A stretch of DNA of 64,000 nucleotides. Origin: an uncultured Bacilli bacterium. GTDB taxonomy: Bacteria; Bacillota_I; Bacilli_A; RF39; UBA660. The notes under the pieces were generated by a model. That model saw only the letters and a list, made by a program, of their open reading frames with translations, did not search any database and was not told the DNA's origin. Positions 1,486 to 42,340 of this stretch are shown here, in pieces. The DNA lies in contig CAKPBJ010000005.1 of assembly GCA_934140575.1 (NCBI GenBank), forward strand, positions 19,385 through 83,384. Direction: 5' to 3'. Made by a program: the position numbers and the translations under genes. Positions within the stretch are counted from its first letter, which is position 1. Every line of letters starts with the position of its first letter.

Positions 1486-3957
1486 ATGGATAGATTAGAA
1501 AAAAACAATATAGTAAAAGAGGTACAGGATTCGTTTTTAGAGTATTCAATGAGTGTTATTGTTGCTCGTGCATTACCTGACCTTAGAGATGGTTTAAAGC
1601 CTGTTCATAGACGTATTTTATATTCTATGTATGAATCAGGTTATACACCAGATAAACCTCATAAAAAGAGTGCTAGAATAGTTGGAGATGTTATGGGTAA
1701 ATATCATCCTCATGGTGATTCTTCAATTTATGAGGCAATGGTAAGAATGGCCCAAGATTTTTCTTACAGATATATGCTTGTTGATGGTCATGGTAATTTT
1801 GGTAATATTGAAGGTTATGGTGCAGCTGCAATGCGTTATACTGAATCAAGACTTTCTAAAATATCACTTGAATTATTAAGAAATATTAATAAAGATACAG
1901 TTAATTTTACTCCTAATTTTGATGAGAGTGAAAGAGAGCCAGAAGTTTTACCTTCAAGATTTCCTAATATATTAGTTAATGGTACGACAGGTATAGCTGT
2001 TGGTATGGCAACTAATATTCCTCCTCACAATTTGAGTGAAGTAATTGATGGTTGTGTTGCTTATATTGAAAATCCTGATATTGATTTAGATGGATTAATG
2101 AAATATATTAAGGGGCCTGATTTTCCTACAGGAGCCATTATTCTCGGAAATAGTGGAATAAGAAAAGCTTATGAAACTGGTAGAGGAACAATAACTATTA
2201 GAAGTAAGGCTACAATTGAGGAAAATAATGGTAAACAACAAATTATAATTGATGAAGTTCCTTATGGAGTTAATACTTTAGAGTTAAAGAATAAAGTTGC
2301 TGAATTGGTTCATAATAAGACAATCGAAGGTATTGCTGATTATCATTCAGACTTAAAAAATGGTATAAAAATTACGATAACATTAAAAAGAGATGCAAAT
2401 GCTCAAGTAGTATTAAACAAATTATATAAACATACTGCTTTTCAAACATCATATGGAATTATATTTTTGATGCTTGATCAAGGTGTTCCAAAAACTCTTG
2501 GTTTAAAGGATATAATAGTTAAATATATTGATTATCAAAAAGAAGTTATTATTAGAAGAACTAAATTTGATTTAGATGTTGCTGAAAAAAGAGTACATAT
2601 ATTAGAAGGGTTAAAAATAGCTTTAGATAATATTGATGCTGTTATTAAAGTAATTAGAGGTTCTAAATCAGATGAAGAGGCTAGAAATGGATTGATAAAT
2701 GGTTTTTCATTAACAGAAATTCAAGCAAATGCAATTTTGGAGATGAGATTGCGTCGTTTAACTGGTTTAGAGCGTGAAAAGATAGAAAATGAACTAAATG
2801 ACTTACTAAAGACAATTGCTGAGTTAAAAGCCATTTTAGCTAGTGATGAGAGGATATTAGAGGTTATTAAGAATGAATTATTAGAAATTAAACAAAAATT
2901 TGGCGATGAGAGACGTACTAATATTGATATGACTGCAATTGAATATATTGAAGATGAATCTCTTATACCAGAAGAAGATATTATTATTAATTTGACTAAT
3001 AATGGTTATATTAAGAGATTAAGAAGTGATACTTATAAAACTCAAAATAGAGGTGGAGTTGGTATTAAGGGTATGTCAACAAATGAGGAAGATTTTGTTG
3101 AAAAAATACTTTCTATGAGTACACACGATTGGATTTTATTCTTCTCTAATAAGGGTAGAGTTTATAGAATGAAGGGTTACGAAGTACCTGAATTTTCTAG
3201 ACAATCTAAAGGATTACCAATTATAAATTTATTGCCACTGGAAAAAGATGAGAACATTAGTTCGATATTGAGTGTTAAACAGGATGATGATTTTACAAAA
3301 TATTTAATATTTGCTACTAAGAATGGTATTGTTAAACGTACTCCGATTGAAGAGTTTGACAGTATTAGAAAAGGTGGTAAAATTGCTATTGTTTTAAAGG
3401 AAAATGATGAATTAATAAGTGTAAAAAAGACTTGTGGAAAAAATGAAATTGTAATCGGAGCAAGTAATGGACGTATGGTTCGATTTGATGAGAATGAAGT
3501 TAGATCTATGGGTAGAAGTAGTTCTGGTGTTAAAGGTATTGATCTTGATGGTGCTATAGTTGTTGGTGCGGAGGTTGTTGAACCTGGACATATGGTTCTT
3601 ATAGTTACTGAGAATGGTTATGGAAAACAAACTTTGATTGATGAATATAGATTAACTCATAGAGGCAGTAAAGGAGTAAAGGCTTTAAATATCACAGAAA
3701 AGAATGGTACAATGGTTTCTTTAAAAACTCTAATGCCAAATGCTCATCTTGATTTAATGATTATGACTGATAATGGTATTATTATTAAACTTCCTTTAGA
3801 GCAAGTTTCTACTTTGAAAAGAGCTACACAAGGTGTTAGATTAATGAATTTAAAAGAAGGTCAAAAAGTAACTACAGTAGCTTTAGTTGAAAAAGAAGTT
3901 GAAGAAGAAGATAATTCTGAGAATAATTCAGAAGAGTCAAGTATAGAAGAAGCATAA
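1486..3957 (+). CDS. gyrA: DNA gyrase subunit A
   Basis: 823 aa. Has [21 protein letters not shown] and AAMRYTE (catalytic Tyr) motifs and a C-terminal beta-pinwheel. GGAGG RBS upstream. Confidence 0.98.
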
Positions 3958-3972
3958 GGCTTCTTTTTTTTT
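3948..3972 (+). terminator. Intrinsic terminator after gyrA
   Basis: Hairpin agaagc/gcttct overlaps the stop codon and is followed by a T8 run. Confidence 0.6.
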
Positions 3973-3991
3973 AATTGTTTAAAATTAAAAT

Positions 3992-4007
3992 TATTTCCCG
4001 GGAAATA
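3992..4007. promoter_or_regulatory. Noc-binding site (NBS), perfect 16-mer TATTTCCCGGGAAATA
   Basis: Exact match to the published NBS palindrome. It sits inside a 26-bp perfect palindrome AAAATTATTTCCCGGGAAATAATTTT (3987-4012). Confidence 0.75.
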
Positions 4008-4135
4008 ATTTTATGTTTAATTTAAGCAATTTACATTAGCATTTGTACATCTTTAATAATTTAAATTGCTTAAAATGCATTTTGTTTAAACCTATACTTT
4101 CCACACATTTTGTTATTTTATGTATGATGTATAAT

Positions 4136-4151
4136 AGTTTCACGTGGAACA
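4136..4151. promoter_or_regulatory. parS-like site (14/16 to palindromic consensus)
   Basis: aGTTTCACGTGgAACA. It is one mismatch from the B. subtilis-type TGTTCCACGTGAAACA read on the other strand. A degenerate DnaA-like CTTTCCACA lies at 4097-4105. Confidence 0.5.
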
Positions 4152-4230
4152 TTTATATTTTTTCACAAATATAGTTACAAATAAATCTAGTAAATTTACA
4201 TATCAATAGGATTTGGGAAATATCTAAAAT

Positions 4231-4246
4231 TATTTCCCGGGAAATA
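4231..4246. promoter_or_regulatory. Noc-binding site (NBS), perfect 16-mer
   Basis: TATTTCCCGGGAAATA inside the same 26-bp palindrome (4226-4251). It lies 19 bp upstream of the parS at 4266. Confidence 0.75.
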
Positions 4247-4265
4247 ATTTTAAAATTAAATGTTA

Positions 4266-4292
4266 TGTTTCACGTGAAACATTCTTTCCACA
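4266..4292. promoter_or_regulatory. Perfect parS (4266-4281) plus degenerate DnaA box (4284-4292)
   Basis: TGTTTCACGTGAAACA exact. It is followed by CTTTCCACA (7/9 to TTATCCACA). Confidence 0.75.
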
Positions 4293-4405
4293 GAAAAAGC
4301 AGAAAATATAAAATTAATTAATTATATAAACTTTTTTTGTTGTAAAATTTAAATAAAGTTTATATTTTATTGGCGTTGAAATAATTATTATGTTTAAATT
4401 TATAA

Positions 4406-4421
4406 TATTTTCCCGGAAATA
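4406..4421. promoter_or_regulatory. Degenerate NBS (14/16)
   Basis: TATTTTCCCGGAAATA. It occupies the same position in repeat unit 1 as the perfect NBS at 4815 does in unit 2, and lies 20 bp upstream of the parS at 4442. Confidence 0.45.
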
Positions 4422-4441
4422 AAAGTTTAATAAATTGGTAA

Positions 4442-4466
4442 TGTTTCACGTGAAACATTATCCACA
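4442..4466. promoter_or_regulatory. Perfect parS (4442-4457) directly abutting perfect DnaA box (4458-4466)
   Basis: TGTTTCACGTGAAACA then TTATCCACA with a 0-bp gap. Confidence 0.8.
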
Positions 4467-4678
4467 AGAAAAGTTGAAATACTATGATAATATAAATTTT
4501 CAACAAAAAAAGTGATAATTAGCATAAAATATTATATTTTATAGAATGCAGATACTTATATAACTTATAATAGTATTGATTCTTATATTTTTCTTAAATA
4601 TCAACAAATATTGAGTGTTATATCTAATTTTATTACTCTTTTTTATGTTGTCTATATAAAAAATATAATTTAAATTTA

Positions 4679-4703
4679 TGTTTCACGTGAAACGTTATCC
4701 ACA
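4679..4703. promoter_or_regulatory. parS 15/16 (4679-4694) abutting perfect DnaA box (4695-4703)
   Basis: TGTTTCACGTGAAACg then TTATCCACA. Confidence 0.75.
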
Positions 4704-4814
4704 GAAAAAGTAGAAAATATAAAATTAATTAATTATATAAACATTTTTTTGTAAAATTTATATATAGTTAATATTTTATTGGTGTTTAAATAATTATTAT
4801 ATTTAAATTTATAA

Positions 4815-4830
4815 TATTTCCCGGGAAATA
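4815..4830. promoter_or_regulatory. Noc-binding site (NBS), perfect 16-mer
   Basis: TATTTCCCGGGAAATA, 20 bp upstream of the parS at 4851. Confidence 0.75.
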
Positions 4831-4850
4831 AATGTTTAATAAATTAGTAA

Positions 4851-4876
4851 TGTTTCACGTGAAACTATTATCCACA
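4851..4876. promoter_or_regulatory. parS 15/16 (4851-4866) plus perfect DnaA box (4868-4876)
   Basis: TGTTTCACGTGAAACt, one base, then TTATCCACA. Confidence 0.75.
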
Positions 4877-5094
4877 AGAAAAGTTGAAATACTATGATAA
4901 AATAAATTTTCAACAAAAAAAGCGATAATTAGCATAAAATATTATTGTTTTTATAGAATGCAGATACTTATATATCTTATAATAGTAATAATTCTCTAAT
5001 TTTTCTTAAATATCAACAAATATTGAGTGTTATATCTAATTTTATTACTCTTTTTTATTTATATTTTCTATATAAAAAATATAATTTAAATTTA

Positions 5095-5121
5095 TGTTTC
5101 ACGTGAAACAATTTATCCACA
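5095..5121. promoter_or_regulatory. Perfect parS (5095-5110) plus perfect DnaA box (5113-5121)
   Basis: TGTTTCACGTGAAACA, 2 nt, then TTATCCACA. Followed by a very AT-rich stretch. Confidence 0.8.
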
Positions 5122-5215
5122 AAAAATGATAATAATTGAATTTAAAGAAAAAAAGTCACAAATATTATTAATAATTATATTTATATTTACTTTTTCAGCA
5201 GTTTATAATACAATA

Positions 5216-5296
5216 TGTATGTGCAATGAAAGTGATTGAAACAGGTCAGGATTGGAAAATAGCAGCCTTAAGGTCCTCCTTTCATGTGCACTTTTT
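5216..5296 (+). ncRNA. ffs: Small (4.5S-type) signal recognition particle RNA
   Basis: Contains CAGGTCAGGattGGAAaatAGCAGCCttAAGG, which matches the conserved SRP domain IV (CAGGUCAGGuccGGAAggaAGCAGCCAAGG in E. coli 4.5S). The closing stem is gtgcaatgaaag/ctttcatgtgcac, followed by a T-run. A TATAAT lies at 5204-5209. Confidence 0.8.
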
Positions 5297-5311
5297 ATTT
5301 TGGAGGAATTT

Positions 5312-5761
5312 ATGAATTTAAAATATATGGAAGAAGCGTTTAATTGTGCTAAAGTTGCTTATAATCTTGATGAGGTGCCAATTGGGGCTGTAATTGTAAA
5401 AAATAATGTTATTATTGGTCGTGGTTATAATAAAAAAGAAAAAAATATGTCTGTTATTGCTCATGCTGAAATTATCGCTATAGAGGAAGCAGCAAAATAT
5501 TTAAATAATTGGAGGTTAGATGGATGTGATATTTATGTAACTCTTGATCCTTGTCCTATGTGTGCAAGTGCAATTAAGCAATCACGAATAAGAAATGTGT
5601 ATTCTGCATGTAATAATTCATTTATAAATAACGAAAAAATTTTAAAATTAATTTTTGAAAGTGATAATACAAATCCTAGTGTCAATTATGCTTCTAATTT
5701 AAATGTTGAAAAATCACAAAAAATGATGAATAGTTTTTTTAAAAAGCAAAGAAATGATTAA
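5312..5761 (+). CDS. tadA: tRNA-specific adenosine deaminase
   Basis: HAE and PCPMC zinc motifs of CDA-fold deaminases. GGAGG lies 6 nt upstream of the ATG at 5312. The ORF-track start at 5252 would overlap the SRP RNA. Confidence 0.9.
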   Translation: MNLKYMEEAFNCAKVAYNLDEVPIGAVIVKNNVIIGRGYNKKEKNMSVIAHAEIIAIEEAAKYLNNWRLDGCDIYVTLDPCPMCASAIKQSRIRNVYSACNNSFINNEKILKLIFESDNTNPSVNYASNLNVEKSQKMMNSFFKKQRND

Positions 5762-16559: not shown

Positions 16560-16795
16560 ATGAACATATTTAAATGTTTTGATGAAGAGCTTTATAGATA
16601 TATATTTATTATAGAGAACTCTGTTGGTGGAAATGAGTATAAATAATTTATAGAGTATGGCTTCTGAACTTCTATATTGATATGTAAGTATAGACGTAGA
16701 TAGGCGTTAACTATTTGAGTGTATAATTTAAATATTATAAATTAAGGTGGTACCGCGAGAGAATCGTCCTTATGTTTATAATATTTTTTTTTGGA
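16560..16795 (+). promoter_or_regulatory. T-box leader (Met specifier candidate AUG at 16657-16659)
   Basis: Stem I elements AGAGA and GGTGGAA. T-box sequence AATTAAGGTGGTACCGCGAG at about 16740-16760. Terminator arm and T9 run just before metG. Confidence 0.85.
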
Positions 16796-18396: not shown

Positions 18397-19155
18397 ATGT
18401 TTATAGATACACATTGTCATTTATCAAATGAAGATTATGATGATATTGATTTAGTTATTAAGGAAAATAGAGAGGCATTGATTGATAAAATTATTATTTC
18501 TGGGTGTACAAAGGAAAGTATTATTGAGTCTATTGAGTTATCTAAAAAGTATTCTGATGTTTATATTACTATAGGTTTTCATCCAAGTGAGGCTTCTATT
18601 ACATCTTTAAATGATTTGAATTTTCTTGAAGAGATGATTTCTTATAATGATAAGGTTGTTGGAATTGGTGAGATTGGTCTTGATTATCATTATGGTAAGG
18701 ATGATATTGATTTACAAAAAAAACTATTTAGAGCTCAAATGAAATTAGCTGAAAAATATAAGTTACCTGTGGTTATTCATAGTAGAGATGCTACTCTTGA
18801 TACAATTAATATTTTGAAAGAGTTTCCTAATGTTATTGGTGATATACATTGTTTTAGTGGTAGTATTGAAACTGCTGATATTTATATATCTATGGGTTAT
18901 AAGTTGGGGATAGGTGGAGTCTTAACTTTTAAAAATAGTAATCTTTATAAAATAGTTGAACATGTTGGACTTGATAATATTTTACTTGAAACTGATAGCC
19001 CTTATTTAACTCCTGTTCCATATAGAGGGAAAAAGAATAGTTCAAAGTACATTCCTTTAATTGCTTCTAAAATATCTGAAATATTAAATGTTAGTGTTGA
19101 AGAAGTGTCCAAAAAGACGCTTAAAAATACATATAGCTTGTTTGACTTGAAATAG
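18397..19155 (+). CDS. tatD: TatD-family metal-dependent DNase/hydrolase (YabD)
   Basis: FIDTHCHL, GEIGLDY and VIHSRDA motifs. Confidence 0.9.
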   Translation: MFIDTHCHLSNEDYDDIDLVIKENREALIDKIIISGCTKESIIESIELSKKYSDVYITIGFHPSEASITSLNDLNFLEEMISYNDKVVGIGEIGLDYHYGKDDIDLQKKLFRAQMKLAEKYKLPVVIHSRDATLDTINILKEFPNVIGDIHCFSGSIETADIYISMGYKLGIGGVLTFKNSNLYKIVEHVGLDNILLETDSPYLTPVPYRGKKNSSKYIPLIASKISEILNVSVEEVSKKTLKNTYSLFDLK

Positions 19156-42199: not shown

Positions 42200-42340
42200 A
42201 GTTTATAATAAAGACAATTTGTAGGTGCCATAGACAGTAGGTGTAAAAATAAATCCTACCGAGGACTTTAATTAGTATATAAGGGTTCTTGGCATATGTC
42301 TTAGAATCCTTTTATTATGGCATCCCTCAAAAAATTAAGG
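42200..42340 (+). promoter_or_regulatory. L10(L12)4-responsive rplJ leader (ribosomal protein leader), tentative
   Basis: About 150 nt structured gap between rplA and rplJ. Has hairpin gtaggtg...cctaccgag and a terminator-like gggttct/agaatcc stem followed by TTTTATT. Position matches the Firmicute L10 leader. Confidence 0.55.

Follow-up and report, generated by a model that had tools for sequence, protein, structure and literature searches.

The 64-kb DNA window analysed here (64,000 nucleotides of contig CAKPBJ010000005.1, assembly GCA_934140575.1) originates from an uncultured Bacilli bacterium, and the stretch of it between gyrA and a tadA-type deaminase gene features a dense array of parS sites, the binding sites of the segregation protein ParB. 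This stretch (3958-5214) is considered established as a chromosomal centromere, on the basis of its perfect parS sites, the presence of a cognate ParB and ParA, its origin-proximal location, its conservation in sequence and position, and the lack of any other parS in the ~83 kb examined, which comprise the window and its flanking loci. The array consists of repeated composite modules, arranged as a Noc-binding site (NBS), ~21 bp, a parS site, 0-2 bp and a DnaA box. Taken as a whole, the locus is, with fair probability, best explained as a chromosomal centromere made of such NBS-parS-DnaA-box modules, in which ParB, a Noc-like protein and the initiator DnaA would be coupled. The components are all known and their composite arrangement is new; in the literature searched, neither parS-NBS-DnaA-box arrays nor the fusion of individual parS sites to DnaA boxes is described.

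Composition of the centromere array

A scan of the window with the 16-bp parS consensus TGTTTCACGTGAAACA returned exact matches at 4266, 4442 and 5095, sites with one terminal mismatch at 4679 (..AACG) and 4851 (..AACT), and a two-mismatch variant (AGTTTCACGTGGAACA) at 4136. These six are the only matches at up to two mismatches in 64 kb, all of them within 4136-5110, against 0.02 expected from shuffles; at three mismatches, two extra weak matches appear at 19139 and 55415. Measured against the palindrome TGTTNCACGTGAAACA, the sites likewise comprise three perfect, two one-mismatch and one two-mismatch copies, and together they span 975 bp of a single intergenic region. A preliminary description of this DNA had reported six Bacillus-type parS sites between gyrA and tadA. 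The same positions and mismatch counts were recovered, the match to the Bacillus consensus is exact and the Pfam families of the flanking genes agree. The parS/ParB centromere reading offered there was correct and at the same time incomplete, as the NBS sites and the DnaA boxes abutting parS had been overlooked.

The parS-bearing stretch is bounded by the gyrA stop codon (3957) and the gene for the small signal recognition particle (SRP) RNA (5215-5300), leaving 1257 bp. Its GC content is 19%, compared with ~27% for the window, and the only open reading frames (ORFs) inside it are two short ones of 43 and 48 aa, located in spacer sequence that lacks conservation across species. An Rfam scan of the gap detected no RNA besides the SRP RNA. 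The features of the locus are as follows, with the strand in brackets where one is assigned.

1486..3957 (+): gyrA, left flank; 823-aa ORF, Pfam DNA_topoisoIV and DNA_gyraseA_C on the identical protein
3945..3967 (+): intrinsic-terminator-like hairpin of gyrA followed by a T-run; terminator scan
3992..4007: NBS1, perfect 16-bp TATTTCCCGGGAAATA; invariant among strains
4136..4151: degenerate parS AGTTTCACGTGGAACA, two mismatches; in all strains
4231..4246: NBS2, perfect; centre 35 bp left of the next parS
4266..4281: parS, perfect
4284..4292 (+): degenerate DnaA box CTTTCCACA, two mismatches, 2 bp after parS; sequence reading
4406..4421: NBS3, degenerate here (TATTTTCCCGGAAATA), perfect in other strains
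4442..4457: parS, perfect
4458..4466 (+): perfect DnaA box TTATCCACA, 0 bp after parS
4679..4694: parS, one terminal mismatch
4695..4703 (+): perfect DnaA box, 0 bp after parS
4815..4830: NBS4, perfect; centre 36 bp left of the next parS
4851..4866: parS, one terminal mismatch; module missing from 5-parS strains
4868..4876 (+): perfect DnaA box, 1 bp after parS
5095..5110: parS, perfect
5113..5121 (+): perfect DnaA box, 2 bp after parS
4256..5126: recent tandem duplication, 409-bp unit x2.1, 91% identity; Tandem Repeats Finder (TRF), repeat families D3-D5 and D8
5180-5214: promoter-like sites ahead of ffs; promoter scan
5215..5300 (+): ffs, small SRP RNA gene, right boundary; Rfam RF00169, 55.5 bits against a gathering score of 40
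5312..5761 (+): tadA-type deaminase gene, right flank; 149-aa product, Pfam dCMP_cyt_deam_1 in identical loci

In B. subtilis and S. aureus, the NBS is the 16-bp palindrome TATTTCCCGGGAAATA (PMC8429893, PMC5540599). The window has perfect copies of it at 3992, 4231 and 4815 and a degenerate one at 4406, and even at three mismatches it holds only these four matches, all in the gap, against 0.16-0.44 expected. In three of the four, the centre falls 35-36 bp left of a parS. All four NBS of the ~83 kb sit in one gap; relatives also carry isolated NBS outside it. The view that the NBS palindromes are mere terminators, one of which was flagged by the terminator scan, is unlikely, as the exact NBS consensus has been kept across species and the genome encodes a cognate Noc-type protein. 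Between NBS1 and the first parS-like site stands an 18-nt inverted repeat (TTTAAGCAATTTACATTA at 4021-4038, TAATTTAAATTGCTTAAA at 4057-4074; 94% complementary, with a loop of 18 nt).

The exact DnaA box TTATCCACA occurs five times in 64 kb, where 1.02 occurrences are expected, and four of these are in the gap. The four gap boxes (4458, 4695, 4868 and 5113) are all on the plus strand and follow a parS by 0, 0, 1 and 2 bp, respectively. Additionally, the parS at 4266 is followed 2 bp on by the degenerate box CTTTCCACA (two mismatches). The gap therefore has the make-up of a DnaA-box cluster, that is, consensus boxes in non-coding DNA near but outside the replication origin oriC, with four exact boxes within 664 bp and the boxes of the array spaced 170-245 bp apart.

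Duplication and variation within the species

The array owes part of its present form to recent duplication. The 409-bp unit identified by TRF, present in 2.1 copies at 91% identity, holds two parS, one NBS and two DnaA boxes, and since 4256-5126 is such a repeat, four of the parS represent two recently duplicated pairs and are not independent. A comparison of nine distinct gap haplotypes of the species revealed no substitution in 132 parS and DnaA-box columns as against 68 in 1072 spacer columns (6.3%; Fisher p = 0.0005). Three NBS are invariant among strains and the fourth is polymorphic, being perfect in some. Moreover, one 244-bp module is present or absent, giving 6 or 5 parS per strain. 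The array grows and shrinks by tandem duplication, and the parS and DnaA-box motifs appear, from this substitution pattern, to be under purifying selection within the species.

The closest species representative (L089) has GyrA and GyrB 99-100% identical to those of the window, and TadA and DnaX of only 85-86% identity. This sharp drop in identity coincides exactly with the array, as though the centromere marked a boundary of recombination or lineage.

Origin context and the cognate proteins

The contig gene order runs mnmE, jag, yidC, rnpA, (rpmH), dnaA, dnaN, a comK-like gene, recF, gyrB, gyrA, the array, ffs, tadA and dnaX, followed by ybaB and recR, with a switch in gene orientation at rnpA/dnaA. 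The region has a canonical bipartite oriC, with at least five near-consensus DnaA boxes in the rpmH-dnaA gap and, in the dnaA-dnaN gap, a DnaA box followed by TAATAATATAAATAGTAA (TA[A/G] trios); only one exact DnaA box occurs around dnaA. The array lies 7.5-8.7 kb to the right of the dnaA-dnaN gap, as measured in locus L010, and is thus origin-proximal. GC skew is strongly positive throughout the window, also over gyrB and gyrA on the left side of the gap. The scan of the 64 kb detected no rRNA operon, though the window is origin-proximal. The GyrA protein occurs unchanged on many human-gut metagenome contigs, including those of the Hadza and other cohorts. A ComK-family gene of 148-152 aa between dnaN and recF (L010:12830-13288) is kept in all related loci.

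Walking left with DnaA as anchor leads to an operon of rsmG, a ParB-family protein of 430 aa, a ParA of 265 aa and a ParB of 303 aa, situated left of dnaA and ~18 kb from the array. Its order matches the noc-soj-spo0J arrangement of Bacillus. The 303-aa protein comprises ParB_N and HTH_ParB domains, finds its best PDB match in B. subtilis Spo0J (6sdk; 208 bits versus 176 for Noc), and carries both an N-terminal RRRALGRGLEELF ParA-interaction motif and the sequence GERRVKA, a GERRxxA CTP motif. The start of its gene is overlapped by that of the 265-aa protein, a ParA/AAA_31-family partner. An absence of parB, which the preliminary description had named as an argument against its reading, does not apply, because a parS-type ParB is encoded ~18 kb away together with ParA and a Noc-like paralogue. 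No parS was found within parB in the origin-region loci examined.

The 430-aa protein has its best PDB match in Noc (7nfu), at 229 bits versus 170-178 for ParB. Specificity between the two families is set by four residues, RTAG in ParB and QKKR in Noc (Jalal et al., PMC7383237); RxxG is highly parS-specific, and Q173 and R201 plus K or R at 179 or 184 are NBS-specific (PMC7383237). Mapped by hand onto this code, the 303-aa ParB has R-M-N-G, with its R and G at the equivalents of 173 and 201, and the 430-aa protein has Q-K-S-R, which is of Noc type. Since ParB reads RxxG and the Noc-like protein QKSR, parS and NBS each have a cognate protein.

The Noc-like protein keeps the organisation of N-terminal domain, DNA-binding domain and C-terminal domain (NTD-DBD-CTD), with a ~200-aa linker inserted ahead of its Noc-like C-terminal domain. 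An N-terminal amphipathic helix is required for nucleoid occlusion by Noc. This membrane-targeting helix is lacking here, as the alignment begins at residue 23 of 7nfu and, in 4/4 species, the start is preceded by an in-frame stop at a distance of 1-5 codons. The paralogues measure 417-436 aa (L010:2064-3356 on the minus strand, L012:2092-3345, L013:2116-3384, L015:46-1356). The linker is of low complexity and carries short motifs common to the species, namely LPTAELP.DESNFGKVTIAPPEG, FINYGE, SSLDNLLN, FITPAEKIVK and DYF..DL..PQETSN; these conserved motifs could serve interaction or membrane binding.

Conservation across related Bacilli

Relatives were chosen without bias, with DnaA (82-85% identical) as anchor and without use of the motifs. 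In all three, the gyrA-tadA gap carries the array: L013 has two parS, two NBS and two exact DnaA boxes, L014 has six, three and three, and L015 has four, four and two, respectively. No such motifs were found elsewhere in ~21 kb around oriC of these loci. In a further relative (L012, DnaA 86% identical), an insertion sequence element (HTH_Tnp_1 and rve transposase) and an RloB/AAA_21 pair stand directly after gyrA (L012:18950-21392), and the examined part of that locus, where the array is expected, held no parS, NBS or DnaA box.

Furthermore, 185,579 species genomes were scanned with the parS-plus-DnaA-box pattern GTTTCACGTGAAACN{1,5}TTATCCACA, and 74 stretches matched. About 26 of the 74 belong to uncultured genomes of low GC (23-29%), under the labels Bacilli, Tenericutes, Mycoplasma or Clostridium sp., which have a GyrA 59-99% identical to that of the window and in which the match is always in the slot after gyrA. 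The comparison of the gyrA-tadA gap proposed in the preliminary description thus yielded the same slot in ~26 genomes, with 2-11 parS and usually with NBS. Across the whole genomes of clade members, the composite of parS and box occurs at the gyrA-tadA locus only. The layouts are diverse; L081 has 11 parS, each with a box, and NBS at either end of the array, and L042 has six parS alternating with seven NBS at a 109-bp period. Judged by sequence and position, the gyrA-tadA array appears to be the conserved chromosomal centromere of the whole clade and not a plasmid-like oddity.

Over 29 loci, a DnaA box (at most one mismatch) lies 0-6 bp, mostly 0-4 bp, from 82/117 parS (70%, tandem-duplicated and non-independent sites included), against a background of 2% in the same gaps, and the figure is ~62% once the hit that selected each locus is removed. 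The adjacent boxes give a clean DnaA-box profile in which T4, A7 and C8 are invariant. The spacers have diverged, so that in all but the nearest species the alignable sequence is limited to stretches of ~25-150 bp around the motifs, and no long-period tandem repeat is detectable in 23/29 clade gaps; the motifs have therefore outlived the duplications that made them. In 80 aligned modules there is no conserved promoter element or other information beyond ~12 nt past the box, except a weak TGTT, which in some species is part of a second, inverted DnaA box. L075 and L060 have this inverted box (TGTTGATAA or TGTGGAAAA) 5 nt after the parS-adjacent one, resulting in a convergent pair.

NBS are, by the authors' estimate, ~30-fold enriched in the centromere over its flanks across the clade. 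Isolated near-perfect NBS are found in or just after dnaX, 2.4-4.3 kb past the end of gyrA, in L055, L057, L041, L060, L075, L076, L080 and L081; the species of the window has no such dnaX-region NBS at up to three mismatches.

Comparison with known systems

Chromosomal parS sites of model bacteria are more widely spaced. The strongest parS sites of B. subtilis lie 5-39 kb apart, and the five strongest of Caulobacter span 5 kb at ~8 kb from the origin (PMC5815017); C. glutamicum has ten parS in 35 kb (PMC7083940). The present array is ~6 times denser than that of Caulobacter at a similar distance from the origin. The preliminary description had taken this density as unusual and plasmid-like. 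The array is indeed denser than those of characterised model chromosomes, but it is no plasmid-like oddity, the layout being typical of the clade and dense arrays occurring elsewhere too.

The locus shares with the Bacillus ParABS system the identical 16-bp parS consensus, an RxxG ParB with GERRxxA, an adjacent ParA, the origin-proximal location and the rsmG-noc-soj-spo0J gene order. It differs in having six sites within 975 bp of intergenic DNA, whereas the sites of B. subtilis are spread and often inside genes (PMC5815017), and in having no parS in parB; moreover, its strong sites are fused to a DnaA box and interleaved with NBS. Like the Noc-NBS system of B. subtilis and S. aureus, it has the exact 16-bp NBS and a syntenic Noc-like protein with the Q, K and R residues and NTD-DBD-CTD organisation. 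Unlike that system, it has a Noc-like protein with no membrane helix (4/4 species), a ~200-aa linker and a score under the NCBIfam cut-off, and its NBS are concentrated in the centromere rather than scattered.

For the DnaA boxes, two precedents are available. In Caulobacter, the centromere contains DnaA boxes; DnaA binds these and makes segregation possible (Mera 2014, as reviewed in PMC6399470). The Caulobacter crescentus centromere is alike in its cluster of parS ~8 kb away from the origin, its DnaA boxes in the region and the notion of an initiator acting at the centromere too. It belongs to a different phylum and has a few boxes in the region, whereas here there is one per parS at 0-4 bp, kept in ~26 species; in addition, a Noc paralogue and its sites would take part here. 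The DnaA-box clusters of B. subtilis hold back initiation and show genetic interactions with spo0J and soj (Okumura et al. 2012, PMC3245932). They are alike in being consensus DnaA boxes outside but near oriC. They are separate loci unfused to parS; here the boxes come one per parS module and are not tightly clustered. S. aureus Noc also restrains initiation, by a mechanism that is unknown (PMC5540599).

Plasmid and secondary-chromosome centromeres form a further point of comparison. Features of the present array that distinguish it from plasmid centromeres are its location on a primary chromosome (gyrBA, dnaX, recR, oriC), its universal chromosomal parS type, the lack of PLSDB similarity and its distance from parAB. 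Burkholderia replicons reportedly have plasmid or secondary-chromosome centromeres with closely spaced ParB sites in one intergenic region, expanded by tandem duplication; the likeness to the present array lies in these several close ParB sites and in their growth by duplication. An origin on a plasmid was rejected (no PLSDB match by blastn, chromosomal gene context), as was a phage origin, the viral scan having returned three unrelated single-site matches on contigs of 35-56% GC.

Dense parS arrays also exist outside the clade, in Lachnospiraceae and Clostridia beside parAB, and in Spirochaetia, Saccharibacteria, Parcubacteria and other metagenome-assembled genomes (MAGs). Only 4/52 non-ascertained parS of these arrays (8%) have an adjacent box, and parS-DnaA-box adjacency as a general bacterial feature was rejected on this ground; no NBS was found in them. 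Very dense parS without NBS are seen in L054 (Spirochaetia MAG), L050 (Saccharibacteria), L032 and L078 (Parcubacteria), with 7 sites/510 bp, 4/260 bp, 3/93 bp and 5/750 bp. Most single matches in other phyla among the 74 loci are compatible with chance, as 10-30 would be expected by a rough, uncomputed estimate. Two MAGs labelled 'uncultured Gammaproteobacteria' (L023 and L077, GC 24-25%) have 8 and 4 parS and three parS-plus-DnaA-box composites each. Neither of these two loci showed homology to gyrA or tadA, and their arrays may represent an independent occurrence or a mislabelled relative.

Proposed mechanism

As known for the protein family, ParB dimers would nucleate on each parS, bind cytidine triphosphate (CTP), close as clamps and slide outward. 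Having 5-6 loading sites within 1 kb would make ParB very dense at this spot for origin segregation by ParA/Soj, and the dense ParB probably recruits SMC, again by analogy with the family. Likewise from family knowledge, a Noc-like clamp would load at the interleaved NBS and join the nucleoprotein complex of ParB. Because the N-terminal membrane helix is missing, the Noc-like protein is probably a second protein of the centromere complex and not a membrane tether of the classic kind, which is the weakest step of the argument. DnaA and ParB could gate each other sterically, either with DnaA blocking the sliding of ParB or by mutual exclusion. Steric gating is favoured over a rigid stereospecific contact, because the boxes at 0-4 bp are too close to parS and the helical phase varies. 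The centromere would thereby become an oriC-proximal DnaA-box cluster whose DnaA occupancy is set by ParB and Soj, in a physical fusion of two elements that B. subtilis keeps apart, namely DnaA-box clusters and Spo0J/Soj. Such ParB-DnaA-Noc crosstalk is plausible in light of the precedents of Caulobacter DnaA, the B. subtilis DnaA-box clusters and S. aureus Noc. The most specific form of the proposal, a three-protein centromere with the ParB clamp, the helix-less Noc paralogue and DnaA side by side on each ~60-110-bp module and the box acting as a gate, is put forward only tentatively and is less likely than not.

Several observations weigh against the composite reading. The clade counts of adjacency draw in part on duplicated sites, as noted above. 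The spacing of parS to box varies over 0-6 bp, and the orientation of the modules relative to oriC flips in some species, e.g. L081 and L087, which together argue against one fixed architecture. The NBS stand 25-57 bp from parS, on either side and unfixed, and the arrays of L043, L048 and L080 have few of them; with this varying position and scarcity in some members, the NBS is a looser component of the module than the DnaA box. With NCBIfam TIGR04285 the Noc-like protein gains 288.7 bits, under the cut-off of 315 (the ParB paralogue reaches 242 bits). Furthermore, ParA control of DnaA in B. subtilis is independent of parS position (PMC7614844), so that proximity is not required for the known ParA-DnaA crosstalk. 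Further parS or NBS may lie outside the ~83 kb examined, and what goes beyond the motif, protein and conservation evidence is inference.

Alternative explanations

Some of these points suit a simpler view, in which the locus is a plain centromere and the DnaA boxes and NBS are passengers, acting independently of ParB, as a common kind of DnaA-box cluster near the origin and as usual sites of nucleoid occlusion, and sharing with it only the single large intergenic region that a compact genome has near oriC. NBS outside the gap in relatives, e.g. inside dnaX, the variable NBS-parS distance, the position-independent regulation of DnaA by ParA in B. subtilis (PMC7614844) and the stand-alone nature of the B. 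subtilis DnaA-box clusters (PMC3245932) are all in line with it. A shared region, however, does not predict a box at 0-4 bp from 70% of parS in ~26 species against a 2% background, nor does it explain how this adjacency survived spacer turnover and module inversion, and dense arrays outside the clade lack the adjacency (4/52 sites). The passenger view is thus considered unlikely compared with the composite centromere.

On a regulatory reading, the array would be a set of operators at which ParB, Noc and/or DnaA regulate ffs, tadA-dnaX-ybaB-recR, read-through from gyrBA or small transcripts of the gap. Some ParB-family proteins, e.g. KorB, are repressors, and promoter-like hexamers overlap the boxes (TCCACA, 16 nt, TATGAT or TAAAAT). 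Additionally, DnaA-box clusters are known as sites where DnaA acts as a transcription factor (PMC3245932, PMC13438810). The promoter-like matches, though, number 24 as against 16.9 ± 3.5 in shuffles, a modest excess in DNA of 19% GC. No -10-like element is conserved beyond ~12 nt after the box in the 80 aligned modules, Rfam shows only the SRP RNA in the gap, and five to eleven repeated operators are too many for one promoter. Such an operator array is therefore improbable.

The boxes of the gap could also be viewed as a second replication origin or a distal part of oriC, as they comprise four perfect boxes of the same orientation in 19% GC DNA and are closer to the consensus than those around dnaA, where only one is exact. 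Against this, the canonical bipartite oriC is found at the rpmH-dnaA and dnaA-dnaN gaps, the array boxes are 170-245 bp apart and unclustered, inspection revealed no run of TA[A/G] trios after them, and neither gene orientation nor GC skew changes at the gap, which makes an origin function highly improbable. Finally, a non-functional repeat, be it a selfish or dispersed family resembling a miniature inverted-repeat transposable element (MITE) or a slippage product that happens to resemble parS, would fit the recent 409-bp duplication and the strain-dependent copy number, but is effectively refuted by the absence of the unit elsewhere in the window, the restriction of the composite to one locus across the genomes of clade members, motif cores that stay exact while spacers diverge, the purifying selection apparent within the species and the cognate binding proteins encoded nearby. 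A dispersed repeat family, a concern also raised in the preliminary description, was likewise rejected, as the gap, compared by blastn with the remainder of the window, yielded nothing but AT-rich chance matches of 13-22 nt, and no other parS cluster was detected in the ~83 kb.

Significance and further observations

The coupling of initiation, segregation and division has so far been represented by genetic crosstalk alone in a few models (Soj-DnaA and DnaA-box clusters in B. subtilis, centromeric DnaA in Caulobacter and Noc in S. aureus). If the composite centromere operates as proposed, a single piece of DNA beside oriC would serve as the common readout of initiator availability, ParB/ParA activity and Noc. 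This would constitute a hard-wired coupling of initiation, segregation and possibly division control, undescribed in any model organism. The three binding sites, within a few bp to a few tens of bp of each other and kept across the clade, provide a synthesisable 1-kb substrate for in vitro tests with ParB, DnaA and Noc. Moreover, the coexistence of parS and NBS at 35-bp spacing bears on why the specificities of ParB and Noc diverged. How centromeres expand is a question asked in reviews, and one route is seen here, namely tandem duplication with copy-number polymorphism among strains, followed by spacer decay with the motifs retained. Elsewhere in the window, a T-box leader (16570-16774) and an L10 leader (42210-42324) were detected.

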